A stretch of DNA of 52,095 nucleotides from Clostridiales bacterium (GTDB lineage Bacteria > Bacillota > Clostridia > Oscillospirales > Acutalibacteraceae): positions 1 through 52,095 of the forward strand of contig DUMT01000056.1 of the NCBI GenBank assembly GCA_012839705.1, given 5' to 3'. Shown piece after piece: positions 10,379 to 39,127 of this stretch. Made by a program: the position numbers and the translations under genes. The notes below the pieces were generated by a model. The model searched no databases, was not told where the DNA came from, and saw only the letters and a program-made list of their open reading frames with translations. Position 1 is the stretch's first letter. Every line of letters starts with the position of its first letter.

Positions 10379-10381
10379 TTC

Positions 10382-10678: not shown

Positions 10679-10938
10679 AGCCCTTTGTTCACACCTTTCC
10701 TTCTGGCAAAATTTTGAGATTCAAAATTTGAACAATATGCCAAATTTTACAGTTAATTCCTTGTATTCTATTGATAAATTTAACTTGAATGTTTATTGCA
10801 GATTTGCTAATATAATGTAAAATTACTTAATATTAATAGGTATAGTATATTGTACCCTATATATCCATCGGCAAAACAATAAATAATTTTAACATATACT
10901 GTTATTTTATGTCGATTTTGAACCAAGGAAGTGAGCGC

Positions 10939-11154
10939 ATGGGGCCGGTTAGTGACGCACAGAAAAGGGCAACTGCCAAATATATAAGAACAAAGCTGGA
11001 TGAAATAAAAATCCGGGTAAGCAAGGGGCAAAAGAACCTGATTAAAGAACACGCCAATAAGCAGGGAGAGAGCTTAAACAAATTCATAATAAGGGCAATT
11101 TACGAAACAATGGAGAGAGACAACCTGAAAACGCAAAAAAAGCGGGAGGGTTGA
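10939..11154 (+). CDS. Ribbon-helix-helix (Arc/CopG/antitoxin-like) DNA-binding protein
   Basis: MGPVSDAQKRATAKYIRTKLDEIKIRVSKGQKNLIKEHANKQGESLNKFIIRAIYETMERD matches the RHH pattern (basic beta-strand, two helices). The ATG at 10939 follows AAGGAAGTGAG. The track start at 10909 was rejected. Confidence 0.6.
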   Translation: MGPVSDAQKRATAKYIRTKLDEIKIRVSKGQKNLIKEHANKQGESLNKFIIRAIYETMERDNLKTQKKREG

Positions 11155-11164
11155 CCCCCCGGCT

Positions 11165-11842: not shown

Positions 11843-11924
11843 AGTTATTCCGCCCTTTCCGTTATCTGCTAATAGGAGTTTGGGCAGAACTTTTTAGTTT
11901 ATTCAAAATAATAAAAATTATACA

Positions 11925-11968
11925 TAAAAAACTTCAAGGCATGTAAAATTAACGCATGCCTTGAAGTT
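11925..11968 (-). terminator. Rho-independent terminator of ispE; the stem overlaps the ispE stop codon
   Basis: 14-bp perfect stem (11930-11943 / 11955-11968). The loop contains the TAA stop, and a T-run follows on the minus strand (A-run 11925-11929 on plus). Confidence 0.7.
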
Positions 11969-12827
11969 TTTCTATCCTCGCCCCTTCAGGATCCGGGCGG
12001 CAAATGAAAACATCAGAGTATAATCCATCAAGCTCCGCTGCACAGCTTTGGGCAACCTTTTCAGAATCAAAAATTCCGAACACTGCAGAGCCGCTGCCGG
12101 TCATCTGGCAACCAAGGCAACGGTACTTATTCATTATGCCTTTAATCCTGTCGACTTCTGGAATCCCTAAAACATCTTCAAACTGATTAAACATCCCACG
12201 GGCTATGGAGTGCAAATCCCCGGTTCGCATCGCATCCTCAATACTGCGGCTGTAAACAGCAGCGACTGCGCCGTCAATCAGCCTGTATGCCTCGGCGGTG
12301 GAAACGCTGATTTCCGGTTTGGCAATAACTATAAAACAATCCGGCATTGAAGGAAGCATCTCAAGCTCGGTGCCGGTGCCGGTACCGAGGGCGGCGCCCC
12401 CGGTTATGCAAAAGGGCACATCAGCCCCAACCTTTCCGCCTATTTTGGATAATCCGCCGGTGTCAAGGCCGGTGCCAAACAGCACGTTCAAGCCCACCAA
12501 CACCGCCGCGGCGTCAGCGCTTCCCCCGGCAAGCCCCGCTCCAACAGGGATGTTTTTTGTAATCTCAATATCAATCCCCGGCATTTTCAACCCGGTATAT
12601 TCAAAAAAGGCAAGAGCCGCCTTATAGGCGGTGTTATTTTTATCCAAAGGGATTCCAGGGCGGGAAACCACAAGGTTTATGCCGTGGTTGCGGCTTTTTT
12701 TAAGCCTTACAACCTCCCTGATGCTTACCGCCTGCATTACAGTACGCACCAGGTGGTACGCGCTGTCTCTCCGCCCTGTGACCTCGAAAGACAGGTTTAT
12801 CTTGGCAGGAGCGCTGGAAACGACCAT
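11949..12827 (-). CDS. ispE: 4-(cytidine 5'-diphospho)-2-C-methyl-D-erythritol kinase
   Basis: APAKINLSF N-terminus and the GHMP kinase motif KNIPVGAGLAGGSADAAA. The ATG at 12827 is preceded by GGGGGAAAAA. Confidence 0.9.
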   Translation of the reverse strand: MVVSSAPAKINLSFEVTGRRDSAYHLVRTVMQAVSIREVVRLKKSRNHGINLVVSRPGIPLDKNNTAYKAALAFFEYTGLKMPGIDIEITKNIPVGAGLAGGSADAAAVLVGLNVLFGTGLDTGGLSKIGGKVGADVPFCITGGAALGTGTGTELEMLPSMPDCFIVIAKPEISVSTAEAYRLIDGAVAAVYSRSIEDAMRTGDLHSIARGMFNQFEDVLGIPEVDRIKGIMNKYRCLGCQMTGSGSAVFGIFDSEKVAQSCAAELDGLYSDVFICRPDPEGARIEKLQGMR

Positions 12828-12862
12828 TTTTTCCCCCACTTCAATCAATTTTTTTCCAGTAA

Positions 12863-14059
12863 CTATTCCTGCTTTGCCGCACAGGCGCCTTTCCGGAAGT
12901 TATTTACAAAATCCTCAATGCGGTCCATAGCTTCGGTAATATGTTTCAGCGAATAGCAATAGGATATGCGCACAAACCCTTCCCCGCTGTCCCCAAAGGC
13001 GGTTCCGGGAACCACCGCAACGGATTTTTCCCTAAGCAGCCTGTGGCAGAAATCCTCAGAGGACAGGCCGGTAATTTCGATAGAAGGGAAAACATAAAAA
13101 GCCCCTTCCGGCTCAAAGCACTTAAGCCCCATTTTGCACAGCCTGTCGACGATATACCGGCGCCGGATATCGTATTCCGCCCGCATGTATTCAACATCCC
13201 CATCCCCGTTTTCCATGGCTTCTATAGCAGCGTACTGGGCGGTGGTTGGGGCGCACATCAGGGCATATTGATGGAGTTTTACCACCTGTTTCATAAGCTC
13301 CTTAGGCCCGCAGGCATATCCAAGCCTCCAGCCCGTCATGGCAAAGGCCTTGGAAAAACCGCTTATCAGCATTGTCCTCTCCTGCATGCCGTCAATGGAG
13401 GCAATGCTCACATGGGGCTGCCCGCCATAAGTCAGCTCGCCATATATTTCATCAGATATGACAAATATATCTGTTTCCCTCAGCACCTCGGCGATTCTCA
13501 CAAGGTGTTCCCTCCTCATCACCCCGCCGGTGGGGTTGTTGGGATAGGGGAGAATCAGCACCTTTGTTTTTGGAGTGATTGCGTTTTTCAGCGCTTCTGG
13601 GGTCAGCCTGAAGGAATCCTCCGCCTTTGTTACAATCGGGACCGGGATTCCGCCAGCCATCAGGGTAAGGGGGCTGTAACATACAAAGCTCGGTTCGGGA
13701 ATCAAAACCTCGTCGCCGGGCTCCACAAGGGTACGCAGCCCCAAATCAATGGCTTCGCTGCCACCGACGGTTACAAGTATTTCGGTTTTTGGGTCGTAAC
13801 TTAGCCCCTTGTGCCTTTCGGTGTATTTCGCTATGCTTTCCCGCAGCCTTATCAGCCCGGAATTGGGCGTATACCATGTTTTGCCCTTTTGAAGGGACTT
13901 GATACCCTCTTCCCTGATATGCCACGGAGTTGAAAAATCAGGCTCGCCTATGGAAAGCGAAATTACATCATCCATTTCAGCGGCAATATCAAAAAAACGG
14001 CGGATACCCGAGGGTTTAAGGTTTTCCAGCGTCTTATTAATCCGGATTTGGTAGCTCAT
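12863..14059 (-). CDS. Pyridoxal-phosphate-dependent aminotransferase, class I/II (aspartate/aromatic type)
   Basis: Has PNNPTG and the PLP-lysine region SGFSKAFAMTGWRLGY; 398 aa. Confidence 0.9.
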   Translation of the reverse strand: MSYQIRINKTLENLKPSGIRRFFDIAAEMDDVISLSIGEPDFSTPWHIREEGIKSLQKGKTWYTPNSGLIRLRESIAKYTERHKGLSYDPKTEILVTVGGSEAIDLGLRTLVEPGDEVLIPEPSFVCYSPLTLMAGGIPVPIVTKAEDSFRLTPEALKNAITPKTKVLILPYPNNPTGGVMRREHLVRIAEVLRETDIFVISDEIYGELTYGGQPHVSIASIDGMQERTMLISGFSKAFAMTGWRLGYACGPKELMKQVVKLHQYALMCAPTTAQYAAIEAMENGDGDVEYMRAEYDIRRRYIVDRLCKMGLKCFEPEGAFYVFPSIEITGLSSEDFCHRLLREKSVAVVPGTAFGDSGEGFVRISYCYSLKHITEAMDRIEDFVNNFRKGACAAKQE

Positions 14060-14063
14060 TTAA

Positions 14064-14537
14064 TTACAGTACCCCTCTTTCATCCTTTTCCTCACCCCTG
14101 AGAATAATACCGCTTTCCTTATAGCGCTGCAAAACAAAATGGGTGGCGGTAGAAATCACCGAATCAAGAGTGGATAAACGCTTGGCTACAAACATGGCGA
14201 TATCCTTGAAGGTCCTGCCGCTGACAATAACGGCAAGGTCATACCCCCCGGACATGAGATATACGCTTTCAACCTCGTTAAACCGCATGATGGTTTCGGC
14301 AATGCTGTCAAACCCGAAATCCCTTTTGGGAGTCACCCTCAGCTCAATAAGGGCAGTGACATAAGGGCGGTCGGTTTTTTCCCAGTCAACAACTGCTTTA
14401 TACCCGCGGATAACGCCCTCCCGCTCCCATTTGGCAATCTGGTCGGCAACATCTTTTTCTGAGCGCCCCAGCATAACGCCAAGCTGCTGATTTGTAAGCC
14501 TTGGATTGCTGTCCAATAACTCAAGCAGTTTATCCAT
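14064..14537 (-). CDS. Lrp/AsnC family transcriptional regulator
   Basis: N-terminal wHTH (LLELLDSNPRLTNQQLGVMLGRSEKDVADQIAKWEREGVIRGY) plus a C-terminal RAM/AsnC_trans_reg domain. It is coupled to the downstream aminotransferase (4-nt gap). Confidence 0.85.
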   Translation of the reverse strand: MDKLLELLDSNPRLTNQQLGVMLGRSEKDVADQIAKWEREGVIRGYKAVVDWEKTDRPYVTALIELRVTPKRDFGFDSIAETIMRFNEVESVYLMSGGYDLAVIVSGRTFKDIAMFVAKRLSTLDSVISTATHFVLQRYKESGIILRGEEKDERGVL

Positions 14538-14620
14538 CCTTAAATCACCTTTCTAAAACTGTTTTTAAAATTATACACGACTTAACCGCCTATTACAATC
14601 AGAATAATAAATAATATAAA

Positions 14621-15430
14621 TTATAATATGGGAACCATTTTGGGATGCCCGTTTTTGAATGTGGCGATATACCTGAAGCCTGCGCTGTAAGCGATATTGA
14701 TGCCGTCCCGGATATTCTTCCCCACATCGCAAGGTTTATGGGCGTCGGAGCCCACAGTTACCATTTCGCCCCCAAGCTCCCTGAAACGCCTGATTAAAAA
14801 TTCATCCGGCATTGTTTTGCCTAATGCCTGCCGAAGCCCCGAGGTGTTGATTTCAAGGGCTATGCCCTTTACCGCCAACAGCCTCAGTATTTCGTCAATC
14901 ACATCCCGCCAGTATCCGTAATCTTCAGGGTACCTGCCCTTTGGTATATACCTGAAGGGATATGTCAGGTGGGCAAGGGAATTGAATTTGCCCCATTTGA
15001 CCATCTCCAGCTGTTCGGCAAAATATCTGTCCATCAGGCTTCGGATATCCACGCTGGTAAAATCGTAATGGTAAAAGTCCCTGTCATCTTTTAAATTGTG
15101 CAGGGAGCCCAGCACAAAATCAAAATCGTAATTTTTCAAAAGCTGCTCGGCGGTATTAAGGTCATGTATAGGCTCACCAAGTTCAATGCCTTTGAGCACC
15201 TCTATCCTTCCCCTGAAAGCCGCCTGCATTTCCCCTGCCTGTTTATAAGATTCGTCGATGGTTTTATCATACCCGTCCTGAATAAAAGCCGGGATTTCCA
15301 CATGGTCGGTAATTGCAAGCTGCAAAATCCCCGCTTTTTCCGCCGCATTGCAGATTTCCAGCATATCAGCATCAGAATCGGGGGAAAATCCGGTATGGGT
15401 GTGGTAATCCACCAGTAATTTAAACTCCAT
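14621..15430 (-). CDS. PHP-family histidinol-phosphatase-like phosphoesterase
   Basis: DYHTHTGFSPDS N-terminal metal motif, with later ...SLH... and GSDAH motifs; 269 aa. Confidence 0.8.
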   Translation of the reverse strand: MEFKLLVDYHTHTGFSPDSDADMLEICNAAEKAGILQLAITDHVEIPAFIQDGYDKTIDESYKQAGEMQAAFRGRIEVLKGIELGEPIHDLNTAEQLLKNYDFDFVLGSLHNLKDDRDFYHYDFTSVDIRSLMDRYFAEQLEMVKWGKFNSLAHLTYPFRYIPKGRYPEDYGYWRDVIDEILRLLAVKGIALEINTSGLRQALGKTMPDEFLIRRFRELGGEMVTVGSDAHKPCDVGKNIRDGINIAYSAGFRYIATFKNGHPKMVPIL

Positions 15431-15559
15431 TTACGCCAACCTTCCAGCTCGCTAGAATTAATTAAGCCATATTATATCACAATCATCGCCGCTTGGCTAT
15501 TATTACAAAAATATTTTGATAAAGATATTGAAACTGCCGGGGGAACCTTTGAATTTCCG

Positions 15560-15587
15560 TTGCATTTCTCAGGATTTGTGTTAGAAT
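15560..15587 (+). promoter_or_regulatory. Sigma-A type promoter for the ACT/UPF0210 pair
   Basis: TTGCAT (15560-15565), 16-nt spacer, TGtTAGAAT with -10 at 15582-15587 (extended -10). Confidence 0.5.
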
Positions 15588-15663
15588 ATAATTTATGTTA
15601 AAATGTAAGCTTAGATAACAAGCAAGTTTATACTGTCTGTATTTTTTTAGGAGGATTTACGGT

Positions 15664-15933
15664 ATGCGAGCAGTGGTAACAGTAATCGGCAAGGACACGG
15701 TGGGGATTCTGGCAAAGGTATCCGCCGCCTGTGCTAAATATAACAACAATATTCTTGAAGTGACCCAGTCAATTCTGCAGGATTTGTTTGTTATGATAAT
15801 GATGATAGATATATCAAACTGCACCATCCCCTTCACCGAATTTGCGGACGAAATGGCAGCCCTCGGCGAAGAAATGGGTTTGCAGGTCCGGGCAATGCAT
15901 GAGGACATATTCAACTCAATGCACAGGATTTAG
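15664..15933 (+). CDS. ACT domain-containing protein (UPF0237 family)
   Basis: 89 aa. [20 protein letters not shown]... is typical of stand-alone ACT proteins. AGGAGG lies 9 nt upstream of the ATG. Confidence 0.85.
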
Positions 15934-15973
15934 CCTTTTAAATTTCACTTTCAGGCTCGAAAGGAATGGAACT

Positions 15974-17332
15974 GTGATTAACACCAAAGATATACTCGAA
16001 ACCATACGGATGATACAGGATGAAAACCTGGACATACGCACCATAACAATGGGAATCTCGCTGCTGGACTGCTGCGACAGCGACATTGGCCGCGCCTGCA
16101 ATAAGATTTACGACAAAATCACGGCATATGCCAAAAACCTGGTCAAAACAGGCGAGGATATAGAGAAGGAATACGGCATCCCAATCATAAACAAGAGGAT
16201 TGCGGTAACCCCGATAGCCATGGTCCTTGCTGCCTGCGAGAAAAAGGACCCGGTGCGTTTTGCCATAACCCTTGAAAAGGCTGCACAGGCCTGCGGCGTA
16301 AACTTTGTAGGGGGATATTCGGCGCTGGTTCACAAGGGTTTTTCCCCAGGGGACAGGGAACTTATTGAGAGCATACCCGAAGCCCTCTCCGTTACCGACC
16401 ATGTTTGTTCCTCAGTCAATGTGGGTTCCACCAAATCAGGGATTAACATGGACGCCGTTGCCCTTATGGGGCAGATAATCCGCAAAACGGCAGAGCTTAC
16501 CGCCGACAGGGACTGCATAGGCTGCGCGAAACTGGTGGTATTATGCAACGCACCTGAGGATAACCCCTTTATGGCAGGTGCATTCCACGGTGCCGGCGAA
16601 CCGGATTGCGTAATCAATGTGGGTGTCTCCGGCCCCGGAGTTGTACGCGCCGCCCTTGCCAAAGCCGGGGATTGCGATTTGACCCAGGTTGCGGATATTA
16701 TCAAGAAAACCGCATTTAAAATAACCCGCATGGGCCAGCTGGTTGCCAGGGAAGCCTCCAGGCGCTTGGGAGTGCCCTTTGGAATAGTAGATTTGTCCCT
16801 AGCCCCCACTCCGGCAGTTGGGGATTCGGTTGCCCATATCCTTGAGGAAATGGGCCTTGAATGCTGCGGCGCCCACGGCACCACAGCTGCCCTCGCACTT
16901 CTCAACGATGCAGTTAAAAAAGGCGGGGTTATGGCATCCTCCCATGTAGGCGGATTATCCGGAGCTTTCATCCCGGTAACCGAGGACGCAGGCATGATAG
17001 AGGCCGCCCGCAAAGGCTGCCTGAGGATAGAAAAGCTGGAAGCCATGACAGCAGTATGTTCTGTTGGGCTTGACATGATTAACATCCCGGGCGACACCCC
17101 CGCCGAGGTTATCGCCGCCATAATTGCGGACGAAGCCGCCATCGGCATGGTCAACTCCAAAACCACGGCAGTGCGCCTGATTCCCGCCATTGGGAAAAAG
17201 GTCGGGGAAGAACTGTCCTTCGGTGGCCTTCTCGGAGGCGGCCCGGTAATGCCCCTTAACACATGGTCACCTGCCCGGTTTATAGCCCGGGGAGGCAGGA
17301 TTCCCGCCCCGATGCAGAGCCTCAAAAACTAA
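15974..17332 (+). CDS. UPF0210 family protein (DUF711, PFL-like fold)
   Basis: [32 protein letters not shown] is the canonical UPF0210 N-terminus. The GTG at 15974 follows AAGGAA. The track start at 15842 overlaps the ACT gene and was rejected. Confidence 0.85.
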
Positions 17333-17348
17333 TAAGGGTTTTAATTAT

Positions 17349-17392
17349 GGATATAGATTAGACGGTTATCCGCCTATCTATATCCTTTTTTT
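17349..17392 (+). terminator. Rho-independent terminator after the UPF0210 gene
   Basis: 10-bp stem GGATATAGAT (17349-17358) / ATCTATATCC (17376-17385) followed by T7. Confidence 0.7.
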
Positions 17393-17559
17393 GTTTTGAT
17401 TTCGGGGGTTATTATGGATGGCAGATAATTTATTAAAAGAGTATAAAAAAAAAATTAATATTTAGTTAATATTCTATTGCGTTTATTTACAAAGTTTGGT
17501 ACTATTTAGTAAAAACACCCCATATATATTGTAGTACTGGATGCGAGGAAGGATAATTG

Positions 17560-17943
17560 ATGGAGAATTGCAGCCCCAAAATACCGGTTGAGGCTAAGTT
17601 CAACCAAACGCCATTCAATATACAGGGTACATATACTCAAGACAAGCCTTCAAACAGCTCAACCAGTTTTCTTTCTTTCCCAAGCATTAACCCTCTAAAA
17701 CCATACAAACACCCTCAACACCCCAGCATAGTTTCAGCAAGCAATCCCGAGCCGAGAATTTCATCAGCGGCTTTTGCCATTTCAATAATTGCCCTTGTTC
17801 TTTACTGGAATCCGGTTATAAGCATTATACTTGCAATAGTATCAATCATATTAGGCATCATAGGAAAAGCAAAAGGCAGCTCAGTTGCGTTGGCTACGAT
17901 TATGATTGGCACTGCTGCCTTCCTGATTCGTTTTATTACCTGA
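17560..17943 (+). CDS. Membrane protein with a disordered N-terminus and a C-terminal two-helix DUF4190-like domain
   Basis: The C-terminus AAFAISIIALVLYWNPVISIILAIVSIILGIIGKAKGS...IMIGTAAF matches the DUF4190 pattern. The ATG at 17560 follows GAGGAAGGA. Confidence 0.6.
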   Translation: MENCSPKIPVEAKFNQTPFNIQGTYTQDKPSNSSTSFLSFPSINPLKPYKHPQHPSIVSASNPEPRISSAAFAISIIALVLYWNPVISIILAIVSIILGIIGKAKGSSVALATIMIGTAAFLIRFIT

Positions 17944-18025
17944 TCTGCCAAGTGTAAACTCTGCTAATTGCCGGGTTTCGCCACACAATATTACCTGCTT
18001 AATACTGGCTTTTAGGAGGATATTT

Positions 18026-18685
18026 ATGAATAATTTTGGCGACATCAATTTTAATTCCGAAAACACCGGCCGGAATACTCAAAACCCGGAACCTGATAGC
18101 CCGGCTGACAATAAAAAAGGCTGGTTTGGCGAAACTCCGGAAGTAAATACAGCGGAAAATATAAGCCCGCCACCACCCCCTCCATACCAGCAGCATAATC
18201 AGAATTTCAATCAGCCTTATTGGAATCGATTCGCTGCGCAAAACGGGTTTAACAACCCCGGAGGGCAACAGTTTGGCGGTTATCCGGGCGGTGCTTACCA
18301 GCCCGGGCCTTACCCAAACGGCGTATATAACCAGGGGGCTTTCAATCATCCTGCCCCACCGCCAGTTGCCAAACCGAAGCGTGACACAGGCTTATCCTAT
18401 GCTTCCTTTGGCATTTCGATTGCCTCGATTGTTTTAATCTGGGTTCCTGCCCTAAACCTGATTCTTGCCTTAACAGCTTTAATCCTGGGTATTGTGTCAC
18501 TTGTCAAGGGATGCGGAGGTTTCGGTATTGCAGGCGTGGTTATAAGCTCGGTGGCTCTTTTTGCCTCGATAATATATTCATTATTATTCTTGTCCCTTTG
18601 GTCTCTTCGCATTTCTAAACCCAGCTTAGAATACGACTTTGATATTGGATGGATGATGGCCCTTTTGCCTTCAATCTTTAAATAA
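18026..18685 (+). CDS. Pro/Gln/Asn/Gly-rich membrane protein with a C-terminal DUF4190-like domain (paralogous architecture to the upstream gene)
   Basis: About 125 aa of low-complexity N-terminus (PPPPPPYQQHNQNFNQPYWN...GGQQFGGYPGGAYQPGPYPNG), then SFGISIASIVLIWVPALNLILALTALILGIVSLVKG. AGGAGG lies upstream of the ATG. Confidence 0.65.
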   Translation: MNNFGDINFNSENTGRNTQNPEPDSPADNKKGWFGETPEVNTAENISPPPPPPYQQHNQNFNQPYWNRFAAQNGFNNPGGQQFGGYPGGAYQPGPYPNGVYNQGAFNHPAPPPVAKPKRDTGLSYASFGISIASIVLIWVPALNLILALTALILGIVSLVKGCGGFGIAGVVISSVALFASIIYSLLFLSLWSLRISKPSLEYDFDIGWMMALLPSIFK

Positions 18686-18709
18686 CCCTTTTGTTTGTTA
18701 ATAATGCTA

Positions 18710-18746
18710 AAAAACGGGACTTCCTTTTGGGTTGTCCCGTTTTTTG
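18710..18746 (+). terminator. Rho-independent terminator
   Basis: AAAAACGGGAC (18710-18720) / GTCCCGTTTTT (18734-18744); a GC-rich stem plus a T-run. Confidence 0.75.
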
Positions 18747-18769
18747 TATTTTTGTGCTTTAACCTCTTT

Positions 18770-18803
18770 TTCGTCAGAATCACCCTGCTTACACCGTTAT
18801 AAT
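18770..18803 (+). promoter_or_regulatory. Candidate Spo0A-activated sigma-A promoter of spoIIGA-sigE (0A-box match plus -10 with a 22-bp spacer)
   Basis: TTCGTCA (18770-18776) is the reverse complement of TGACGAA and matches the 0A box TGNCGAA. TATAAT is at 18798-18803. There are exactly 22 nt between TTCGTC and TATAAT. Confidence 0.4.
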
Positions 18804-18848
18804 ATAAGAGTGTGGACTTGTAATCCGGCAAAGCGGGGGTGACAAAAG

Positions 18849-19781
18849 ATGCCGGTAATTTATCTGGATGTTTTGCTGGCCCTGAACCTGTTCATTGACT
18901 TTCTCCTGTTATCCGCCGTGGTGAGGATTCTAAGGCTGCCCTGCAAACGGTTCAGGCTGGTGCTGGGAGCTGTTGCCGGCAGCATATTTTCCGCCGCCCT
19001 GTTTTTACCTCCCCTGCCCGCCGCCGTTTCCATGCTGATTAAAATTGCAAGCGCATGCGTCATAGTTAAAATCGCTTTCAAATGGCAAAGCCCTATCCTT
19101 TACATAAAACAAGTGGCTGTATTCCTGATTTCATCAGCTTTATTCGGGGGCTTAGCTTTCGCCATCTGGTTTTTCGCCGCCCCCTCGGGTTTTTATGTGG
19201 TGAACGGAGTTGTATATTACAACGTTTCCCCGCTTATGCTGACTGTGCTTACCGTCGCAAGCTATCTGATAATCAGCCTGTATGACAGGCTCACTCATAA
19301 AAGGATGGCCTTGGGGCAGGAATACACGCTTACCATCGACTGCGGCTGTGGGCCCCTTGAATTGCGTGCCCTTTACGACACAGGCCACCATGTAACCGAC
19401 GTTTTTTCCGGGAAACCGGTGGCTGTCGTACGTTTTGGCGCAATCGAGCGAAACCTGCCCGAAAATTTGCGGGAATCGGTTTTGCCCTTGCTTGATTTTG
19501 GAAAAGCCTCCCAGAAAGGCGAAAACTACGCCACAGCAGCCGGCACCAGGCTTCGGATGATTCCCTTAAAAACCGTAAGCGGGACAGGGTTGCTTCCTGC
19601 CTTTTGCCCGGCACAGATGGTTTTATCCTCCTCCAGCGGCAAGTCAGCGGACATAACAGGCTGCTTTATTGCCGTATGCCAGATACTGGGGCGCGGGGAA
19701 TATGACGCAATAATTGGGACAGATATGATTACTCTATTGGAAGGGAGCAGCATTAAATGCAGCAGGCAATATCAGAACTGA
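18849..19781 (+). CDS. spoIIGA: Sigma-E processing peptidase SpoIIGA
   Basis: Typical N-terminus [21 protein letters not shown], 5 TM helices, and an aspartic protease-like motif [18 protein letters not shown]. Confidence 0.9.
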
Positions 19782-20479
19782 TACAACGGATACGGCTTCT
19801 TTGGTTTAAGCTGCTTAAATCGCTGGCGGACGAAGGCCATTACATAAACGGGGCGGATACTCTGCCTCCCCCTTTAACCGCAGAAGAAGAGGCTGTGATA
19901 TTTGGAAAAATCGAAAAAGGGGATACCACTGCAAGGAATAAGCTGATTACCCATAATCTGCGGCTTGTGGTTTATATTGCGCGAAAATTTGAAAATTCCG
20001 GGGTGGGAATCGAGGATTTGATTTCGATTGGCACTATCGGGTTGATAAAAGCCGTTAACACCTTCTGCCCATCACGGAATATTAAACTTGCCACATACTC
20101 CTCCAGATGCATTGAAAACGAAATACTGATGTATCTTAGGAAAAACGCACCGCTGAAAAACGAGATGTCAATTGACGAGCCCCTTAATGTGGACTGGGAT
20201 GGCAACGAGCTGCTGCTGTCGGATATCCTTGGCAGCGACCCGGACATAGTCAACCGCAATATAGAGCAGGAGGCGGAAAAAACACTTTTGCACGAGTGCA
20301 TTTCCCAGCTTAACGAAAGGGAGCGGTTTATCATGTGCCTTCGGTTCGGCATGAACGGCAACAAAGAGCACACCCAGAAGGAAGTTGCAGATTTATTAGG
20401 AATTTCCCAGTCGTATATTTCAAGGCTTGAGAAAAAGATAATCAAACGGCTTAAAAAAGACTTGGAAAGGGCATGTTAG
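19757..20479 (+). CDS. sigE: RNA polymerase sporulation sigma factor SigE (pro-sigma-E)
   Basis: Pro-sequence plus [17 protein letters not shown], with region 2 and region 4 motifs ([16 protein letters not shown]). Overlaps the spoIIGA end by 25 nt. Confidence 0.9.
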
Positions 20480-33454: not shown

Positions 33455-34146
33455 CTGAATACCTCCCTGAAATACTGGTCAAGGGATTTGCCTGTCCTCT
33501 CCCGCAGGGCATCAGCGCTTTCCGCCACAAGCAAGGTCCCGTTGCCTATCATTATGATATCATCAAATATCCGCTCCACATCATGTATCAGATGGGTGGA
33601 CAACATAACAGTGGAGTTTTCACTATAATTATTGAGTATAATGTCAAGTATATTGTCCCTTGCCGCCGGGTCAATCCCGCTCAATGGCTCGTCAAGTATA
33701 TAAAGCTTTGCCGCCCGGGACATAACAAGTATAAGCTGCAGTTTTTCCTGCATGCCCTTTGACATGGATTTGAGTTTCATCCCCGGTTCAAGGTTGAAAC
33801 GTTTTAGCATTTCCAATGCCTTTTGCCGGTCAAAGTCTTTGTAAAAGTCAGCGAACATTGAAATGGCGGTTCCCGCCTTTATGCCTTCATCAAGGTAGGT
33901 TTTCTCCGGCAAAAAGGATATAATTTCCTTGGATTTTACCCCCGGCGGGTTTCCGTCAATCAGGACAGTTCCCTGATAGTCGCCAATAAGCCCGGCGATT
34001 ATTTTGAACATGGTGGTTTTTCCGCAGCCGTTAGGGCCCACAACCCCCACAATCCTGCCGCTTTCAACATTCAACGAAATGCCCTTCAATACCGGCCCTC
34101 TGTCGTAGGATTTGAACAGATTCCGGATTTCAAGAAGCGAGCTCAT
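33448..34146 (-). CDS. ABC transporter ATP-binding protein
   Basis: Walker A GPNGCGKTT, signature MSKGMQEKLQL and Walker B LYILDEPLSG. Confidence 0.9.
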   Translation of the reverse strand: MSSLLEIRNLFKSYDRGPVLKGISLNVESGRIVGVVGPNGCGKTTMFKIIAGLIGDYQGTVLIDGNPPGVKSKEIISFLPEKTYLDEGIKAGTAISMFADFYKDFDRQKALEMLKRFNLEPGMKLKSMSKGMQEKLQLILVMSRAAKLYILDEPLSGIDPAARDNILDIILNNYSENSTVMLSTHLIHDVERIFDDIIMIGNGTLLVAESADALRERTGKSLDQYFREVFRC

Positions 34147-34541
34147 GAATTTTCCTCCCTTTTACTCAAACCGGCGTGGTTTTCAAACGCCGATTCAACC
34201 AGTTTGATTGTTCTTTCACGGGTAAACCCCATTTGTGCCATTTGTTTGATAAATTCCGCCAATACCTGCCCCGCAAGGCGCTCCCTCGCCGCGTCGATTA
34301 TCCCGGTGTTTTCTGTAATAAACCGCCCGGCGGTACGCTCGCTGTATAAAAGCCCTTCCCTCTCAAGTTCGGACAGGGCTTTTTGCATGGTATTGGGATT
34401 TACCCCAAACTCAATTGCAAGGTCCCTGACTCCCGGAACCCTGCTTCCCGGAGCCCATTCACCCGAAACAATTTTTTGCCTAATCAGATGGATGATCTGA
34501 AGGTAAATAGGTACTCCGGAATCATACTTAACGTCAAACAC
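34143..34541 (-). CDS. GntR family transcriptional regulator, YtrA subfamily
   Basis: PIYLQIIHLIRQKIVSGEWAPGSRVPGVRDLAIEFGVNPNTMQKALSELEREGLLYS with a short C-terminal domain (132 aa). GTG start. Confidence 0.85.
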   Translation of the reverse strand: MFDVKYDSGVPIYLQIIHLIRQKIVSGEWAPGSRVPGVRDLAIEFGVNPNTMQKALSELEREGLLYSERTAGRFITENTGIIDAARERLAGQVLAEFIKQMAQMGFTRERTIKLVESAFENHAGLSKREENS

Positions 34542-34558
34542 ACTCCCATCCCCTGATT

Positions 34559-34592
34559 GTATTATTGTATTATGTGCTTAATACAATAATAC
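34559..34592. promoter_or_regulatory. Perfect 14-bp inverted repeat, candidate YtrA-type operator
   Basis: GTATTATTGTATTA (34559-34572), 6-nt spacer, TAATACAATAATAC (34579-34592). It lies 18 nt upstream of the gntR start and overlaps the predicted -10. Confidence 0.55.
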
Positions 34593-34613
34593 ACTATTTT
34601 CCGGATTTGTCAA
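34586..34613 (-). promoter_or_regulatory. Sigma-A promoter of the gntR-ABC operon
   Basis: On the minus strand: TTGACA (34608-34613), 16-nt spacer, TATTAT (34586-34591). Confidence 0.5.
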
Positions 34614-34654
34614 GCCGAATTTTCCTCAATTGCTAAAATATGCTCCAAAAAGAG

Positions 34655-34683
34655 TTGCAGCAAGTTGCTAAAACGTGTATATT
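34655..34683 (+). promoter_or_regulatory. Candidate sigma-A promoter of the DRTGG/hydrogenase-like cassette
   Basis: TTGCAG (34655-34660), 17-nt spacer, TATATT (34678-34683). A direct repeat TTGCTAAAA occurs at 34630 and 34665. Confidence 0.35.
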
Positions 34684-34720
34684 ATAATTTGAACAGTATG
34701 TAAAAACAGGAGGTATGCGT

Positions 34721-35059
34721 ATGACGATTGGCGACATAAAAAATTTACTCAATGCGACCGTTCTTTCCGGCCATGATTTGCTTGATACCGAGGTGCACAA
34801 CGCCTGCGGAAGCGACATGATGAGCGATGTACTGGCGTTTGTAAAGGACCAGTCGGTGCTTTTGACCGGCCTTGTCAACCCGCAGGTGGTACGCACTGCC
34901 GAAATGATGGATATGGTGTGCATTATATTTGTCCGCGGGAAGGAGCCCGGCGAGGACATTATCAAGCTTGCAGAAGAACGCGGTATTGTTTTGATGAAAA
35001 CCCCCCTCAGGATGTTCCCGGCTTGCGGTATTCTTTACGAGGCAGGCCTTCGTGGCTAA
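34721..35059 (+). CDS. DRTGG domain-containing protein (single domain)
   Basis: GSDMMSDVLAFVKDQSVLLTGLVNPQVVRTAEMMDMVCIIFVRGKEP resembles the DRTGG fold. The ATG at 34721 lies 7 nt after AGGAGG. Confidence 0.7.
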   Translation: MTIGDIKNLLNATVLSGHDLLDTEVHNACGSDMMSDVLAFVKDQSVLLTGLVNPQVVRTAEMMDMVCIIFVRGKEPGEDIIKLAEERGIVLMKTPLRMFPACGILYEAGLRG

Positions 35060-35088
35060 TACAATCTGACGAATGCGGGGGAATATGA

Positions 35089-35535
35089 TTGAAACTGCAT
35101 TATGAAGTCCCCGGAGATGATTTTACCCGTGCTGGCGAGGCATCCGGGGATGTTAAACGCAAGCTTAAAAGCCTGGGTTTTCCGCCCGACGTTATACGCC
35201 GTATTACCATCGCTATATACGAGGGCGAAATCAATATGGTAATCCATGCCGGCGGCGGTGTGGCTGATATTGAGATACTCCCTGACCGGATTACCGCCGT
35301 GCTCGCGGACCAGGGCCCCGGCATCCCTGACATAGAAAAGGCAATGCAGGAGGGCTGGTCAACCGCTCCCGACAACATCAGGTCATTGGGTTTTGGAGCA
35401 GGTATGGGGTTGCCAAACATTAAGAAATATTCTGACATACTTAATATAGATACCGAGGTGGGCAGGGGCACCACATTGACAATTACCGTTCTGGTTAACC
35501 CTGAGCACAGGGAAATGCACAACCACAATCATTAA
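35089..35535 (+). CDS. GHKL-type ATPase, anti-sigma-factor/serine kinase-like (RsbW/SpoIIAB-sized)
   Basis: N-box-like YEGEINMVIH, G1 DQGPGIPD and G2 GFGAGMGLPNI; 148 aa. TTG start 6 nt after GGGGGA (start uncertain). His-rich tail HREMHNHNH. Confidence 0.7.
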   Translation: MKLHYEVPGDDFTRAGEASGDVKRKLKSLGFPPDVIRRITIAIYEGEINMVIHAGGGVADIEILPDRITAVLADQGPGIPDIEKAMQEGWSTAPDNIRSLGFGAGMGLPNIKKYSDILNIDTEVGRGTTLTITVLVNPEHREMHNHNH

Positions 35536-35564
35536 TTGTTTTATTACCATGGGGGTGATAATCC

Positions 35565-36884
35565 ATGGACCGTTTTTTTCATTCGGTTATGCTGGTAAAG
35601 GAGCTTTGCGTCGGATGCACGAACTGCATCAAGCGCTGCCCCACCCAGGCAATCCGCGTCCGCGACGGCAAGGCGAGAATAATATCCGAAAGGTGCATTG
35701 ACTGCGGTGAATGCATACGGGTCTGCCCTCACCATGCCAAAAAGGCGGAACATGACAGCCTGGATATGCTAAAAAATTTTACATACAACATCGCATTGCC
35801 CGCCCCGTCACTTTATGGGCAGTTCAACAGGCTGGATGATATTGATTATGTCTTAAACGGGCTCAAAGCCCTGGGGTTTGACGACGTGTTCGAGGTTTCC
35901 CGGGCGGCGGAAATAATCTCCGACGCTACCCGGCAGCTGATTGCTGACGGAAAGCTGAAAAAACCTGTTATCAGCTCGGCATGCCCTGCTGTGGTCAGGC
36001 TGATTAGGGTGCGGTTCCCCGACCTGTGCGACAACGTCCTCCCCCTTGTCTCGCCAATGGAACTGGCGGCAATCCTTGCAAGGAAGCAGGCTGCGGAAAA
36101 AGGTATTCCTGATGAGCAAATCGGGGTGTTTTTCATTTCCCCCTGTGCCGCCAAGGTCACTGATGTCCGCGCCCCTTTAAGCATAGAACACTCCCACGTG
36201 AACGGGGTACTTGCCATAAGCGATATTTATCCAAAACTGGTAAGCTGCATGAACAAACTAAAAGAGGTTGAACCCTTAGCAAATTCCGGGATAATCGGCG
36301 TCAGCTGGTCCTCCATCGGAGGAGAGGCGGCGGGCCTTCTTAATGAAAACCACCTGGCGGCAGACGGGATTGAAAATGTCATAAAGGTTTTGGAGGAACT
36401 GGAGGATGAAAAGCTCCAGGAACTTGATTTTATTGAGCTTAACGCCTGCTCGGGCGGCTGCGTAGGCGGGATTTTTGCCGCCGAAAACGGATATGTCGCA
36501 AAGGCGAGAATCAAAAGGCTTCGCAAATACCTGCCCGTTTCCTGCAACAGGCTGAATGGTTCCATTGGGCTTAAAGATATATGCTGGACCGAACAGTTGG
36601 AATACGAGCCTGTCATGACCCTGGCTGAAAACGTGGAAGAAGCCATGCGAATGATGGACAAAATCGACAAAATCTCCGCAAAGCTTCCAAAACTTGACTG
36701 CGGTTCCTGCGGCGCCCCCACCTGCAGGGCGCTGGCGGAGGATATTGTAAAAGGCCTTGCCCAGGAAACGGACTGCATATTCTTAATGCGCCGGGAAATC
36801 CAGTACATTGCAAGCCAGCTAACCAAACTCAAAGGCTTCATCCCGGATGGCAATGACGATTCTAAAACAGGCGGACAGGAGTAA
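35565..36884 (+). CDS. [FeFe]-hydrogenase-like protein: two ferredoxin-type 4Fe-4S motifs, an Fe-hydrogenase large-subunit C-terminal-like domain, and a C-terminal RnfB/CFeSP-type Cys motif (putative sensory type)
   Basis: Has CVGCTNCIKRCP and CIDCGECIRVCP. H-cluster-like motifs are ISSACPAVV, FISPCAAKV and ELNACSGGCVGG. The C-terminus has CGSCGAPTCRALAEDI. Confidence 0.8.
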   Translation: MDRFFHSVMLVKELCVGCTNCIKRCPTQAIRVRDGKARIISERCIDCGECIRVCPHHAKKAEHDSLDMLKNFTYNIALPAPSLYGQFNRLDDIDYVLNGLKALGFDDVFEVSRAAEIISDATRQLIADGKLKKPVISSACPAVVRLIRVRFPDLCDNVLPLVSPMELAAILARKQAAEKGIPDEQIGVFFISPCAAKVTDVRAPLSIEHSHVNGVLAISDIYPKLVSCMNKLKEVEPLANSGIIGVSWSSIGGEAAGLLNENHLAADGIENVIKVLEELEDEKLQELDFIELNACSGGCVGGIFAAENGYVAKARIKRLRKYLPVSCNRLNGSIGLKDICWTEQLEYEPVMTLAENVEEAMRMMDKIDKISAKLPKLDCGSCGAPTCRALAEDIVKGLAQETDCIFLMRREIQYIASQLTKLKGFIPDGNDDSKTGGQE

Positions 36885-36889
36885 AAACA

Positions 36890-37225
36890 ATGACTGTATC
36901 TGAACTGGTAGCAGAACTTGGGCTGGAAGTCATCGTAATGGGGGATAAGGACAGGGAAATCACCGGGGGATATTCCTGCGACCTGCTAAGCTGGGTTATC
37001 GGCAGGGCAAACCCCGGTGACGCGTGGATTACGGTTATTGGAAATATTAATACTATTGCTGTATCTATTCTTGCGGACACCTCCTGCATAATACTGGCGG
37101 AGAACTCCGCCATTGACCCGCAGGCAACCAAACGGGCAGAAACTGAAGGCGTAACCGTCCTCAGAAGCAGCAAAAACGCCTTTCAGCTATCCTTTGAAAT
37201 CGGAAGGCTTTTAAAGGTGGTTTAA
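36890..37225 (+). CDS. DRTGG domain-containing protein (second copy)
   Basis: 111 aa. GGYSCDLLSWVIGRANPGDAWITVIGNINTIAVSILADTSCIILAEN is typical of small DRTGG proteins. Confidence 0.7.
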   Translation: MTVSELVAELGLEVIVMGDKDREITGGYSCDLLSWVIGRANPGDAWITVIGNINTIAVSILADTSCIILAENSAIDPQATKRAETEGVTVLRSSKNAFQLSFEIGRLLKVV

Positions 37226-37265
37226 GGATTCCTTTAAAGCCCTGCAGGAAAAGGAAGGTAATTTT

Positions 37266-37991
37266 ATGAGATTCTTTTACGACCTGCATATCCATTCATG
37301 CCTGTCCCCCTGCGGCGATAAAGACATGACCCCCAACAATATAGTTAATATGGCAAAACTTAAAGGTTTGGATATTATAGCATTGACAGACCACAATAGC
37401 AGTAAAAACTGCCCTGCTTTATTAAAAGCGGCTGAAAGGGCTGGTGTTCTGGCTCTCCCCGGCATGGAGCTTTGCACCGCGGAGGAATGCCATGTGGTAT
37501 GCCTTTTTCCAAACCTTGACGCCGCCCTAGAGTTTGACAAAATGGTGGAAAAATCCCTGCCTGATATAAAAAATAATCCTGATATATTCGGAGAGCAAAT
37601 TATCATGGATGGTGACGACACAATCACCGGCACTTACCCAACTCTCCTCACCACCGCATCATCAATAGGTTTGGATGAAGCGGCCAATCTGGCAGGCAGA
37701 TTCGGGGGAGTAGCCGTACCGGCGCATATAGACCGGCCCTCCTTCAGTGTGATATCCGTACTGGGCGATGTCCCCGGCGAAGGGTTTTCCGCCTATGAAA
37801 TCTCGGGGCTTAACTGTGTGGACACATTGTCGCAGCGTTATCCTGCCATAAGCGGCAAAACAATACTTATAAACTCCGACGCCCACTATCTTAGTGATAT
37901 AAACGAGACAGGTCAATGGCTCGAACTTGGCTTTCTGTCGCCGGAAAATGTTATCGGCGCCTTATTAAATGGGTGCCAATGGGGTTTTTAG
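37266..37991 (+). CDS. PHP domain-containing phosphoesterase
   Basis: FYDLHIHSCLSPCGD and ALTDHNS metal-binding motifs, with later VPAHIDRP and NSDAH; 241 aa. AAGGAAGG lies upstream of the ATG. Confidence 0.8.
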   Translation: MRFFYDLHIHSCLSPCGDKDMTPNNIVNMAKLKGLDIIALTDHNSSKNCPALLKAAERAGVLALPGMELCTAEECHVVCLFPNLDAALEFDKMVEKSLPDIKNNPDIFGEQIIMDGDDTITGTYPTLLTTASSIGLDEAANLAGRFGGVAVPAHIDRPSFSVISVLGDVPGEGFSAYEISGLNCVDTLSQRYPAISGKTILINSDAHYLSDINETGQWLELGFLSPENVIGALLNGCQWGF

Positions 37992-37993
37992 CC

Positions 37994-38022
37994 TTTTATT
38001 TTCCAGCAACACATGATATAAT
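37994..38022 (+). promoter_or_regulatory. Possible extended -10 promoter for pit
   Basis: TGaTATAAT (TG at 38014-38015, TATAAT at 38017-38022) with a weak -35 TTTTAT 17 nt upstream. Confidence 0.3.
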
Positions 38023-38077
38023 ATTGTTGTTTTGGGTTAAATCTATAATACATTAAGGATTCGAGAGGAGTACTTGA

Positions 38078-39127
38078 ATGCCATCGTTTTTTGAATTCTT
38101 ATCCGACGCAGTAACAAACCCTCCACTTCTTATCACAGCGCTTCTTACCATGGGGGTTATCTTCGTCAACGGATGGACCGACGCGCCGAACGCCATAGCC
38201 ACCTGCGTTTCAACCCGGGCGATTGCACCAAGAGCCGCAATCATCATGGCTGCTGTTTTCAACTTCCTTGGCGTATTTGTAATGACTATGTTTAATAGTA
38301 CGGTTGCCCAGACCGTTTATAACATGGTGGATTTCGGCGGGAATTCTAAAGATGCTTTAACCGCCCTGTGCGCCGCCCTTTTCGCAATAGTAGTGTGGGC
38401 GGTGGCTGCCTGGTATTTCGGCATACCCACAAGCGAGAGCCATGCGCTGATAGCAGGCCTTTCGGGAGCCGCCATTTCCCTAAAAGGCGGACTTAGCGGA
38501 ATAAACGGTAGCGAATGGGTCAAGGTACTGTACGGGCTTGGGCTTTCCACCGCTTTGGGATTTATCGCCGGCTGGGTTGCAGCCAAACTCACCACATTTA
38601 TATGCCAGGATCTTGACAGAAGGAAGACCACCACCTTTTTCCGTAAAGCCCAGGTATGCGGCGGTGCTGCAATGGCCTTCATGCACGGGGCGCAGGATGG
38701 GCAGAAATTCATGAGTGTTTTCCTGCTTGGCATGTTTCTTGTCAAGGGCCAGGCTAATGTAACTGAATTCGTAATTCCCACATGGCTTATGCTGCTATGT
38801 TCTGCCGTAATGGGGATTGGAACTTCCATAGGCGGTTACCGCATTATCAAGGCGGTGGGCATGGATATGGTAAAACTGGAAACATACCAGGGCTTTTCCG
38901 CTGACGTGGCTGCCGCAGGATGCCTGCTTTTATCCTCCCTTACAGGCATACCGGTAAGCACAACCCACACAAAAACCACCGCAATCATGGGTGTCGGGGC
39001 TTCAAAAAGGCTTTCCGCAGTCAACTGGAGCGTGGTTAAGGAAATGGTACTGACCTGGGTGCTTACCTTCCCCGGCTGCGGACTTATTGGTTATCTTATG
39101 GTAAAGCTTTTTGTATGGATATTCTAA
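38078..39127 (+). CDS. pit: Inorganic phosphate transporter, PiT family
   Basis: NGWTDAPNAIAT and ...SGIPVSTTHTKTTAIMGVG duplicated PiT signatures; about 10 TM helices. Confidence 0.9.
   Translation: MPSFFEFLSDAVTNPPLLITALLTMGVIFVNGWTDAPNAIATCVSTRAIAPRAAIIMAAVFNFLGVFVMTMFNSTVAQTVYNMVDFGGNSKDALTALCAALFAIVVWAVAAWYFGIPTSESHALIAGLSGAAISLKGGLSGINGSEWVKVLYGLGLSTALGFIAGWVAAKLTTFICQDLDRRKTTTFFRKAQVCGGAAMAFMHGAQDGQKFMSVFLLGMFLVKGQANVTEFVIPTWLMLLCSAVMGIGTSIGGYRIIKAVGMDMVKLETYQGFSADVAAAGCLLLSSLTGIPVSTTHTKTTAIMGVGASKRLSAVNWSVVKEMVLTWVLTFPGCGLIGYLMVKLFVWIF

Follow-up and report, generated by a model that had tools for sequence, protein, structure and literature searches.

The DNA analysed here is a contig of 52,095 nucleotides (nt) from a Clostridiales bacterium of the Acutalibacteraceae (GCA_012839705.1, contig DUMT01000056.1), the whole of which is called the window. 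Within it lies a cassette of five genes, g1 to g5, which encode a small DRTGG protein, a small GHKL-type ATPase, a homologue of [FeFe]-hydrogenases, a second DRTGG protein and a PHP-domain phosphoesterase (Table 1). With modest confidence, we read this region as a conserved regulatory cassette built around a group D HydS protein, which would act as a slow, high-affinity sensor of H2 (or of the redox state) and not as a bulk catalyst. Putative sensory hydrogenases of group D are a known kind, and this locus is one more member.

All five open reading frames (ORFs) are intact and keep all of their catalytic and ligand residues. An earlier note on this DNA, made from its letters only, had called the domains as DRTGG, HATPase, Fe_hyd_lg_C with Fer4 and FeS, DRTGG, and PHP. 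Profile searches returned all five as Pfam matches above the gathering score, which for the DRTGG family is 25.2 bits and is exceeded by both g1 and g4.

The Cassette as a Conserved Unit

Synteny was studied in a sample of one genome per species, which gave 568 relatives. The best 80 loci (54–85% identity in g3) were used, and these derive from Oscillospiraceae, Acutalibacteraceae, Lachnospiraceae, Petroclostridium and others. In all of them the order and orientation g1-g2-g3-g4-g5 is constant wherever the contig allows. As far as gene order can show, the five genes are inherited as one unit, and the suggestion of the earlier note that they travel together is upheld for these best 80 of the 568 related loci.

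Clustering of the flanking ORFs revealed a single recurrent set of neighbours, namely a nuoE-like hydC (~164 amino acids, aa), a second GHKL ATPase (~185 aa, HATPase_c_3 type), a ferredoxin-like gene (hydD, 123 aa), a nuoF-like hydB and a group A hydA. Using tblastn, this hydrogenase operon was found adjacent to the cassette in 48 of the 80 loci, 18 times downstream on the same strand and 30 times upstream in divergent orientation. Here, the usual partner of the cassette is shown to be a NuoE/NuoF-linked hydrogenase operon of the electron-bifurcating type, which contains a second small GHKL ATPase.

Other arrangements exist as well. Thermoanaerobacterales-like contigs display the order rex-[g1g2]-HydS-g4-PHP-hydC-ATPase-hydD-hydB-hydA, in which g1 and g2 are fused and start and stop codons overlap between rex and the fusion as well as among HydS, g4 and PHP. 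Only in these loci is the operon headed by rex. A scan for Rex boxes upstream of g1 gave sites with at most three mismatches in 16 of 78 loci and none in the window; it had no background control and is not taken as evidence. Two environmental contigs carry hdrCBA-like-[g1g2]-HydS-g4-PHP-ATPase-nuoE-fd-nuoF-polyferredoxin-FlpD, followed by the small and large subunits of a [NiFe] hydrogenase. The common denominator of the partner operons is the NuoE/NuoF module and not one type of hydrogenase. In one further, distant locus (L081:9611-19098), a FdhA-like molybdopterin protein of 810 aa is encoded, and the HydS-like protein is devoid of the equivalents of the group D residues E254 and D267 of g3.

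No regulator or output gene is conserved in the flanks of the 80 loci, where SerA/SerC, LexA, a deacetylase and the like occur in few loci, apparently by coincidence. Likewise, neither a sigma factor nor a STAS protein stands beside the cassette in the 80 loci or in the window.

Regarding the hydrogenases of these loci, all 36 full-length HydA genes beside the cassette have TSCSPGW as L1 motif and not the textbook TSCCPxW (e.g., L036:3955-5718 on the minus strand and L007:15587-17287). The same TSCSPGW is found in HydA1 of Acetobacterium woodii (7Q4V), and HydA1 of T. kivui (8A6T) has TSCCP. Some Lachnospiraceae (L035, L036, L037, L047, L063) harbor a third [FeFe]-hydrogenase-like gene of 492–598 aa, at about 100–3600 in locus coordinates, in addition to the divergent hydABC operon. 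The L036 copy keeps TSCCP and is preceded by a 393-aa protein, PP2C/SpoIIE-like by eye, and a 177-aa protein. This third gene may belong to a second sensory system of another type.

The [FeFe]-Hydrogenase Homologue g3

The g3 protein scores 113 bits with Fe_hyd_lg_C and 48 bits with FeS (PF04060), in addition to Fer4. It displays two N-terminal [4Fe-4S] motifs (C15-x2-C-x2-C-x3-CP and C44-x2-C-x2-C-x3-CP, the cysteines of which are invariant in the orthologue alignment), an H-domain and a C-terminal [4Fe-4S] motif. Within the H-domain, the four H-cluster cysteines C140, C194, C295 and C299 are kept in the motifs L1 (SSAC140P), L2 (S192-PC194AAK) and L3 (E291-LNAC295SGGC299). The second sphere is changed: A139 replaces C299 of CpI, S192 replaces M353 and N293 replaces M497, and at the M353 position Ser or Thr is found in 73 of 74 orthologues. 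The C-terminal motif, C379-GS-C382-GAPT-C387-x16-C404, is an exact Cx2Cx4Cx16C and is kept in all 74. No PAS domain was matched in g3 by Pfam or NCBIfam, and the protein ends 35 residues past its last cysteine.

Furthermore, E254, D267 and E291 are at least 97% conserved in 71 orthologues. They correspond to E252, D265 and E289 of TamHydS from Thermoanaerobacter mathranii with an offset of +2, the same as for A137/A139, a mapping that rests on numbering and motif. In the E254 column, Val is present in group A HydA and in a 492-aa hydrogenase-like Lacrimispora protein of related loci. The Thermoanaerobacterales-like HydS in L083 does not follow the TamHydS numbering, and no solved structure of a close relative of g3 was found.

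Land et al. defined the M2e or group D enzymes (TamHydS type) by these features and set them apart from the PAS-bearing group C HydS (PMC8163306), and E252, D265 and E289 of TamHydS have been proposed as a group-D-specific proton path (PMC10407848). Since its motif set, the Cx2Cx4Cx16C, the altered second sphere and the lack of a PAS domain match the published definitions (PMC8163306, PMC10407848), g3 is assigned by sequence to group D (M2e, TamHydS type) and not to group C, as a putative sensory [FeFe]-hydrogenase. The earlier note was right in regarding g3 as a non-prototypical, putatively sensory homologue, with its four H-cluster cysteines kept and its second sphere altered, and wrong in placing it in group C, from which it is set apart by the exact Cx2Cx4Cx16C and the lack of PAS.

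TamHydS resembles g3 closely. Both have the two [4Fe-4S] motifs, the H-domain and the C-terminal Cx2Cx4Cx16C in the same order, no PAS domain, Ala at CpI-C299, Ser at M353 and the Glu and Asp residues of the proposed group D proton path; at the M497 position, Leu is given in the group D comparison and Asn is present in g3. Also the small histidine-kinase-like ATPase beside TamHydS, noted by Land et al. (PMC8163306), has its counterpart in the cassette. TamHydS has a low activity and a comparatively low Km(H2) of ~0.1 mM (PMC8163306, PMC10407848, PMC13104023), turns over H2 in both directions (PMC8163306), and for a characterised group D homologue an activity of ~10^-1 µmol H2 per mg per min was reported (PMC10407848). 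Exposure to H2 changes the secondary structure of TamHydS, and its C-terminal cluster is not reduced by H2 (PMC8163306, PMC13104023). Its signalling partners are unidentified in published work (PMC8163306, PMC10407848, PMC13104023). Under the label 'D M2e', Carere et al. list Cthe_0335, TTE0887, Athe_1292, Csac_1857 and Cphy_3798 (PMC3561251). Typically, genes of the group D set adjoin a trimeric or tetrameric bifurcating group A hydrogenase, a matter of context and not of sequence, and in relatives of the cassette a position upstream of such an operon is likewise seen; the window has no such operon.

The DRTGG-ATPase Module g1-g2

Across the 80 loci the orthologues of g1 are 60–83% identical, and D34, S37, D38, T51 and K76 are invariant or near-invariant. 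For g2, the N, G1 and G2 boxes (catalytic E..N, DxGxG and GxGxG) are conserved in 62 orthologues and the best solved relative is SpoIIAB (E 9e-8). With 45.5 versus 135 bits for SpoIIAB and 20 versus 145 bits for RsbW, g2 stays far below both equivalog cut-offs. The description of g2 as a GHKL ATPase of the anti-sigma/serine-kinase type with these three boxes nevertheless holds, since sequence and fold are SpoIIAB/RsbW-like.

With g1 as query, 1550 relatives were retrieved from 1.8 billion representative proteins. Among these, proteins of 270–275 aa were found in which a g1-like DRTGG domain is followed by a linker of ~25 residues and a g2-like ATPase, the g1-type domain being N-terminal. Using a fusion as query, at least 120 distinct 90%-identity clusters from several phyla were retrieved (255–305 aa, 44–80% identical to the query). 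Since the two proteins are fused in many lineages (Rosetta-stone evidence), g1 and g2 are taken to work as one unit, and by this sequence criterion they form one functional module. In 90 DRTGG-ATPase fusions, the residues D33, L34, S36, D37, L39, T50 and K75 are invariant.

Structurally, an AlphaFold2 (AF2) model of one fusion (P0333; 90-sequence alignment) reached a predicted local distance difference test score (pLDDT) of 87 and a predicted template-modelling score (pTM) of 0.80 despite the disordered linker; these values suggest a defined packing of the two domains. In this model the ATPase half matches SpoIIAB over its whole length with a template-modelling (TM) score of 0.85–0.86 and a root-mean-square deviation of 2.0 Å, and RsbW was matched too. 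The DRTGG half matches the DRTGG domain in the regulatory region of the CBS-pyrophosphatase of C. perfringens (3L31), and there are weak sequence matches to 2IOJ, 3L2B and 3L31. Three long matches of g1, P0252 (SPOR and DRTGG), P0271 (ArgJ) and P0387 (M3 peptidase), were rejected as gene-calling or assembly artefacts, being partial-g1 matches or apparent upstream extensions.

The Second DRTGG Protein and the PHP Phosphoesterase

The g4 gene lies invariably between the HydS and PHP genes in the 80 loci, and its motif D31-L-L-S34 is invariant in 48 orthologues. It starts 5 nt past the g3 stop, and elsewhere it overlaps g3 and g5 (start/stop overlaps in L083 and L086). Judged from these gene borders, g3, g4 and g5 are tightly or translationally coupled. 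Fusions of g4 with g5, or of g3 with another protein, were found neither among the top matches nor in the 80 loci. A pairwise BLAST of g1 against g4 is not significant; that they are paralogues is concluded from their common Pfam family, from transitive clustering and from the D-L-x-S motif present in both. Within each of the two paralogues, a D-L/M-x-S motif is invariant (D34/S37 in g1, D31/S34 in g4). This site may be a phospho-acceptor or a phosphate-binding site.

In g5, the metal ligands H8, H10, D42, H43, E68, H76, H154, D205 and H207 are invariant in 48 sequences. The cysteines C16, C49 and C79 are invariant and C12 and C70 near-invariant in 48 homologues, and they are specific to this subfamily. 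By sequence position, several of them seem to come just after strands of the barrel, close to the metal site. The five cysteines could form an additional site for a metal or an Fe-S cluster, or they could be thiols that respond to the redox state.

An AF2 model of g5 (48-sequence alignment) has a pLDDT of 95. Its nearest folds are the PHP domain of EndoQ (TMq 0.68), TM0559, BAD_1165, RNase AM, the AMP-bound Cv1693 and the PHP domain of PolC/PolIII. The protein-tyrosine phosphatase YwqE/CpsB (3QY6) ranks only 43rd against this model (E 0.076, TM 0.36), and the sequence search with g5 gave no match to CpsB/YwqE. The barrel is thus closest to EndoQ/TIGR00375 (COG1379) and the TrpH/RNase AM type. 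In contrast to EndoQ/TIGR00375, g5 consists of the 241-aa barrel only, lacks the Zn ribbon and the DNA-binding domains and has the five subfamily-specific cysteines. Its score with TIGR00375 is 17 bits at a cut-off of 327, the match to EndoQ being through the PHP domain only. Homologues of g5 are named 'PHP family Zn ribbon phosphoesterase' by JGI. From its conserved ligands and predicted fold, g5 is very likely an active phosphoesterase; its identification as a protein phosphatase is unsupported.

An Uncoupled Clade Under Purifying Selection

Nine of the 80 loci, as well as the window, are without a hydrogenase operon although the flanks extend for 7 kb or more in either direction. In the window, neither structural nor maturation genes of hydrogenases are found within 34 kb upstream or 14 kb downstream of the cassette. 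Since all of the closest relatives (at least 70% identity) fall in this set, the uncoupling is a feature of a Candidatus Avimonas-like clade of gut Clostridia. The window organism is close to Candidatus Avimonas, with a PHP protein that is 99% identical. The claim that the cassette is uncoupled from structural hydrogenase genes therefore stands for this clade, and it fails as a general statement, the operon being adjacent in 48 of 80 loci.

Compared with the other uncoupled relatives, the cassette proteins are 53–85% identical. For the five genes the synonymous divergence (dS) is saturated, the non-synonymous divergence (dN) is 0.09–0.43 and their ratio omega is ~0.04–0.24 where computable. 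Since synonymous sites are saturated while dN is low, the cassette in this clade is under strong purifying selection and is maintained, not decaying. It is separated from the hydrogenase operon and yet maintained, and therefore its target is presumably encoded elsewhere in the genome.

Proposed Mechanism and Alternatives

Mechanistically, H2 would bind at the H-cluster of HydS and thereby change the conformation of the protein. This change would be read by the bound g1-g2 module, which would use ATP to switch the state of a partner, most likely the free DRTGG paralogue g4 or a hydrogenase-associated protein. The likeliest switch would be a phosphorylation on the invariant Ser of the D-L-x-S motif or an ATP-dependent binding, and the PHP phosphoesterase g5, made together with g4, would reset it. 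The output would be the control of the NuoEF-linked hydrogenase. As the unit has no conserved DNA-binding protein, this control would probably be exerted post-translationally or via an unlinked regulator, for instance Rex.

A more far-reaching version can be put forward tentatively, and we consider it possible and rather doubtful. Here, the cassette would represent a new signal-transduction architecture with an H-cluster as input, a DRTGG-kinase and a DRTGG-PHP reset, controlling NuoE/NuoF-linked electron-bifurcating enzymes ([FeFe] as well as [NiFe] hydrogenases) at the protein level and not by a transcription factor of its own, and in the Avimonas-like clade, freed from the operon, it may act as a general H2 or redox sensor for other targets.

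Several points weigh against the reading as a sensory cassette. No output protein is identifiable beside the cassette. The fold of g5 groups with nucleotide and nucleic-acid phosphoesterases and not with the known PHP protein phosphatases. In L081 the order is DRTGG-[g1g2]-HydS-nuoE-nuoF-FdhA-like-NfnAB-like, with neither a PHP gene nor a hydrogenase. Finally, group D enzymes as such have only been proposed to be sensors.

Of the alternatives, a strict partner-switching phospho-relay fares best, although it is unlikely. In such a relay, g2 would be the kinase of the DRTGG proteins and g5 their phosphatase, and the unphosphorylated DRTGG protein would free from g2 a sigma or transcription factor encoded at an unlinked site, so that the logic of RsbW/RsbV/RsbU would be realised with other folds. 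Protein phosphatases do occur among the PHP enzymes, as in the case of CpsB/YwqE; the barrel of g5, in contrast, matches these poorly and those of EndoQ, RNase AM and PolIII well. The genes for the kinase-like protein and the phosphoesterase are always accompanied by those for two small alpha/beta proteins, both of which keep the invariant D-L-x-S motif, and g2 is SpoIIAB/RsbW-like in sequence and fold with intact catalytic residues, yet far under the equivalog cut-offs of both. That g1 is fused to the kinase in many lineages fits a domain for docking or regulation better than an antagonist that exchanges freely, and the surroundings of the cassette in the 80 loci show no conserved sigma factor, STAS protein or transcription factor. 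Of the resemblance to partner switching that the earlier note had seen, the SpoIIAB-like g2 remains, whereas g5 does not have the fold of an RsbU-like phosphatase; with no conserved sigma factor, STAS protein or output, it is an analogy only.

Improbable in our view is a model without phosphorylation, in which the DRTGG domain binds a nucleotide, the PHP protein hydrolyses this nucleotide or a short nucleic acid, and HydS and the ATPase set its level or the response to it. The nearest relatives of g5 in fold and sequence do have nucleotides or nucleic acids as their substrates (Cv1693 with AMP, RNase AM, EndoQ), the invariant D, S, D, T and K of g1 would fit a phosphate-binding site, and the fusion model resembles, in its DRTGG half, the CBS-DRTGG regulatory region of the pyrophosphatase 3L31. 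Such pyrophosphatases, however, bind nucleotides at their CBS domains and not at DRTGG. Moreover, the cassette is without a nucleotide cyclase or synthetase, and g5, with 241 versus ~400 aa, has neither the Zn-finger nor the C-terminal DNA-binding part that EndoQ has.

Slightly less probable still is a role outside of sensing, with g3 as a low-rate catalytic or electron-relay hydrogenase or a cofactor carrier and the other proteins as assembly, maintenance or activation factors of NuoEF-linked hydrogenases. GHKL ATPases include chaperones, and the cassette adjoins [FeFe] and [NiFe] NuoEF-linked enzymes and also a FdhA-like enzyme; g2, however, is specifically of the SpoIIAB/RsbW regulatory-kinase type and not of the Hsp90 or MutL type, and the uncoupled clade keeps the cassette without an adjacent enzyme to assemble. 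Although TamHydS catalyses H2 turnover both ways (PMC8163306), the activity of the characterised homologue, ~10^-1 µmol H2 per mg per min (PMC10407848), argues against a catalytic role.

That the cassette is a decaying remnant left by loss or relocation of the hydrogenase operon in this genome, for which the 34 kb upstream and 14 kb downstream devoid of hydrogenase genes would speak, is very improbable in view of five intact ORFs with all catalytic and ligand residues, saturated synonymous sites at 53–85% protein identity and an omega of 0.04–0.24 against other uncoupled relatives, and an arrangement common to at least nine further species-level loci with full flanks.

Comparison With Known Systems

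The cassette resembles several known systems in part. The group C (M2f) HydS of Thermotoga maritima shares with g3 a non-prototypical H-domain without the proton-relay Cys and a C-terminal [4Fe-4S] motif, and group C genes are linked, like the cassette, to bifurcating hydrogenase operons and to kinase/phosphatase-type genes. The HydS of Ruminococcus albus (group C) occurs with a Ser/Thr kinase, a phosphatase and Rex. In contrast to g3 with its DRTGG, SpoIIAB-like and PHP partners, group C HydS have a C-terminal PAS domain and partners of the Hanks or PP2C type.

The SpoIIAB-SpoIIAA-SpoIIE and RsbW-RsbV-RsbU modules contain the ~145-aa GHKL Ser-kinase fold with N, G1 and G2 boxes that is found in g2, encoded together with small alpha/beta partner proteins and a phosphoesterase. 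The cassette differs from them in having DRTGG instead of STAS and PHP instead of PP2C, in a kinase that is often fused to one partner, in an Fe-S/H-cluster protein as input and in the lack of a linked sigma factor. In the HoxBC-HoxJ-HoxA system of [NiFe] H2 sensing, which is mentioned in PMC8163306, a slow hydrogenase homologue together with a kinase-type ATPase controls the expression or activity of energy-converting hydrogenases. The concept is alike, whereas the metal site is unrelated, and the PAS-histidine kinase HoxJ and its response regulator are absent from the cassette.

In the Thermoanaerobacterales-like loci, ATPase and DRTGG are fused and preceded by rex, whereas the window has separate genes. 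The accessible texts of the group D papers do not discuss DRTGG and PHP companions. Neither these companions of HydS nor the DRTGG-ATPase fusion were found in the searchable literature, outside of which many subscription papers lie, so that a prior description is possible; the same applies to the association with NuoEF-linked [NiFe] enzymes and to the arrangement free of hydrogenase genes. The remark that no role has been demonstrated for the DRTGG and PHP partners fits this, as no paper in that literature links either to HydS.

Gene Layout and Surroundings in the Window

The genes of the cassette are separated by 29, 29, 5 and 40 nt, and Shine-Dalgarno-like purine runs lie ahead of every one of the five starts. 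The coordinates and purine runs bear out the description of five same-strand ORFs with gaps of 5–40 nt and a ribosome-binding site (RBS) each. For g1, the start alternatives are 34715 and 34721. Since AGGAGG lies 7 nt before the ATG at 34721 and homologues align from residue 3, the latter is the likely start, as had been proposed.

Table 1. Coordinates in the window of the five cassette genes and of the candidate signals ahead of g1.
Feature	Position	Strand	Basis
g1, 112-aa single-domain DRTGG protein, partner of the ATPase	34721..35059	+	Pfam DRTGG, 31.0 bits
g2, 148-aa SpoIIAB/RsbW-like GHKL ATPase, putative Ser/Thr kinase, TTG start	35089..35535	+	Pfam HATPase_c_2/HATPase_c
g3, 439-aa group D (M2e) putative sensory [FeFe]-hydrogenase, HydS type	35565..36884	+	Pfam Fe_hyd_lg_C, FeS, Fer4
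g4, 111-aa divergent DRTGG paralogue	36890..37225	+	Pfam DRTGG, 28.2 bits
g5, 241-aa minimal PHP-barrel phosphoesterase (predicted)	37266..37991	+	Pfam PHP
Candidate -10 hexamer TATAAT (34683-34688) and RBS AGGAGG (34708-34713) ahead of g1	34683..34713	+	read from sequence

The promoter-like element that had been described upstream of the cassette could be confirmed in part. Its TATAAT is perfect; a -35 element with proper spacing was not found, candidates being present only at 12 or 22 nt, and a scan for consensus sigma-70 promoters gave no plus-strand site upstream of g1. A direct repeat, TTGCTAAAA, is present at 34630-34638 and 34665-34673, just 5' of the TATAAT, and the upstream regions of relatives are not alignable. 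After g5 no terminator-like site was found, and an Rfam scan of 34000-38300 at E ≤ 1 gave no match. A reading of the cassette as a defence system was rejected, as the PADLOC models gave merely Fer4-motif noise.

The neighbours are as described before, a YtrA-type ABC operon and pit-DUF47. The former contains a GntR/YtrA-type regulator (34143-34541) with ABC genes and is transcribed divergently, away from the cassette. Between this regulator and g1, a perfect 15-nt inverted repeat (TGTATTATTGTATTA / TAATACAATAATACA) at 34558-34593 overlaps a strong minus-strand promoter, TTGACA-16-TATTAT (34613-34586). The repeat is probably the autoregulatory operator of the divergent regulator, and given the common intergenic region a cross-regulation of g1 via this operator is conceivable. 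Downstream of g5, pit (PHO4) is followed by DUF47. The stretch from g5 to pit contains an extended -10 element, TGATATAAT (38014-38022), so that pit-DUF47 is probably driven by its own promoter.

To check the content of the window, 45 of its called ORFs, among them nearly every one longer than 130 aa, were compared with Pfam, and no STAS, response-regulator, NuoE/F, HydA or radical-SAM/HydF-like protein was found. This agrees with the earlier note, which had listed STAS proteins, response regulators, NuoE/NuoF-like subunits and HydE/F/G maturases as missing from the window together with sigma factors; on the last point it has to be corrected, since sigE for pro-sigma-E is present at 19757-20479. 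It overlaps spoIIGA (18849-19781) and lies 15 kb from the cassette, to which this sporulation pair is unrelated. Sporulation and germination genes occupy 6171-20479 and comprise a gerA/gerC/gerB-type operon (6171-10129), spoIIR (11165-11842) and spoIIGA-sigE; the window organism is a spore-former. A second, unrelated PHP-domain protein of 269 aa is encoded on the minus strand at 14621-15430 (full-length PHP match, 89 bits), adjoining an Lrp/AsnC regulator and an aminotransferase.

Significance

Group D HydS enzymes are under intensive study in vitro. Here, the synteny of the five genes, the DRTGG-ATPase fusion and the coupling of HydS, DRTGG and PHP provide a short and testable list of candidate HydS signalling partners. 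The sensing of the H2 partial pressure by fermenters is relevant to the hydrogen economy of gut and rumen as well as to the engineering of H2 or ethanol yields. In addition, the uncoupled Avimonas-like copy would offer a natural setting in which to look for further targets of the sensor.

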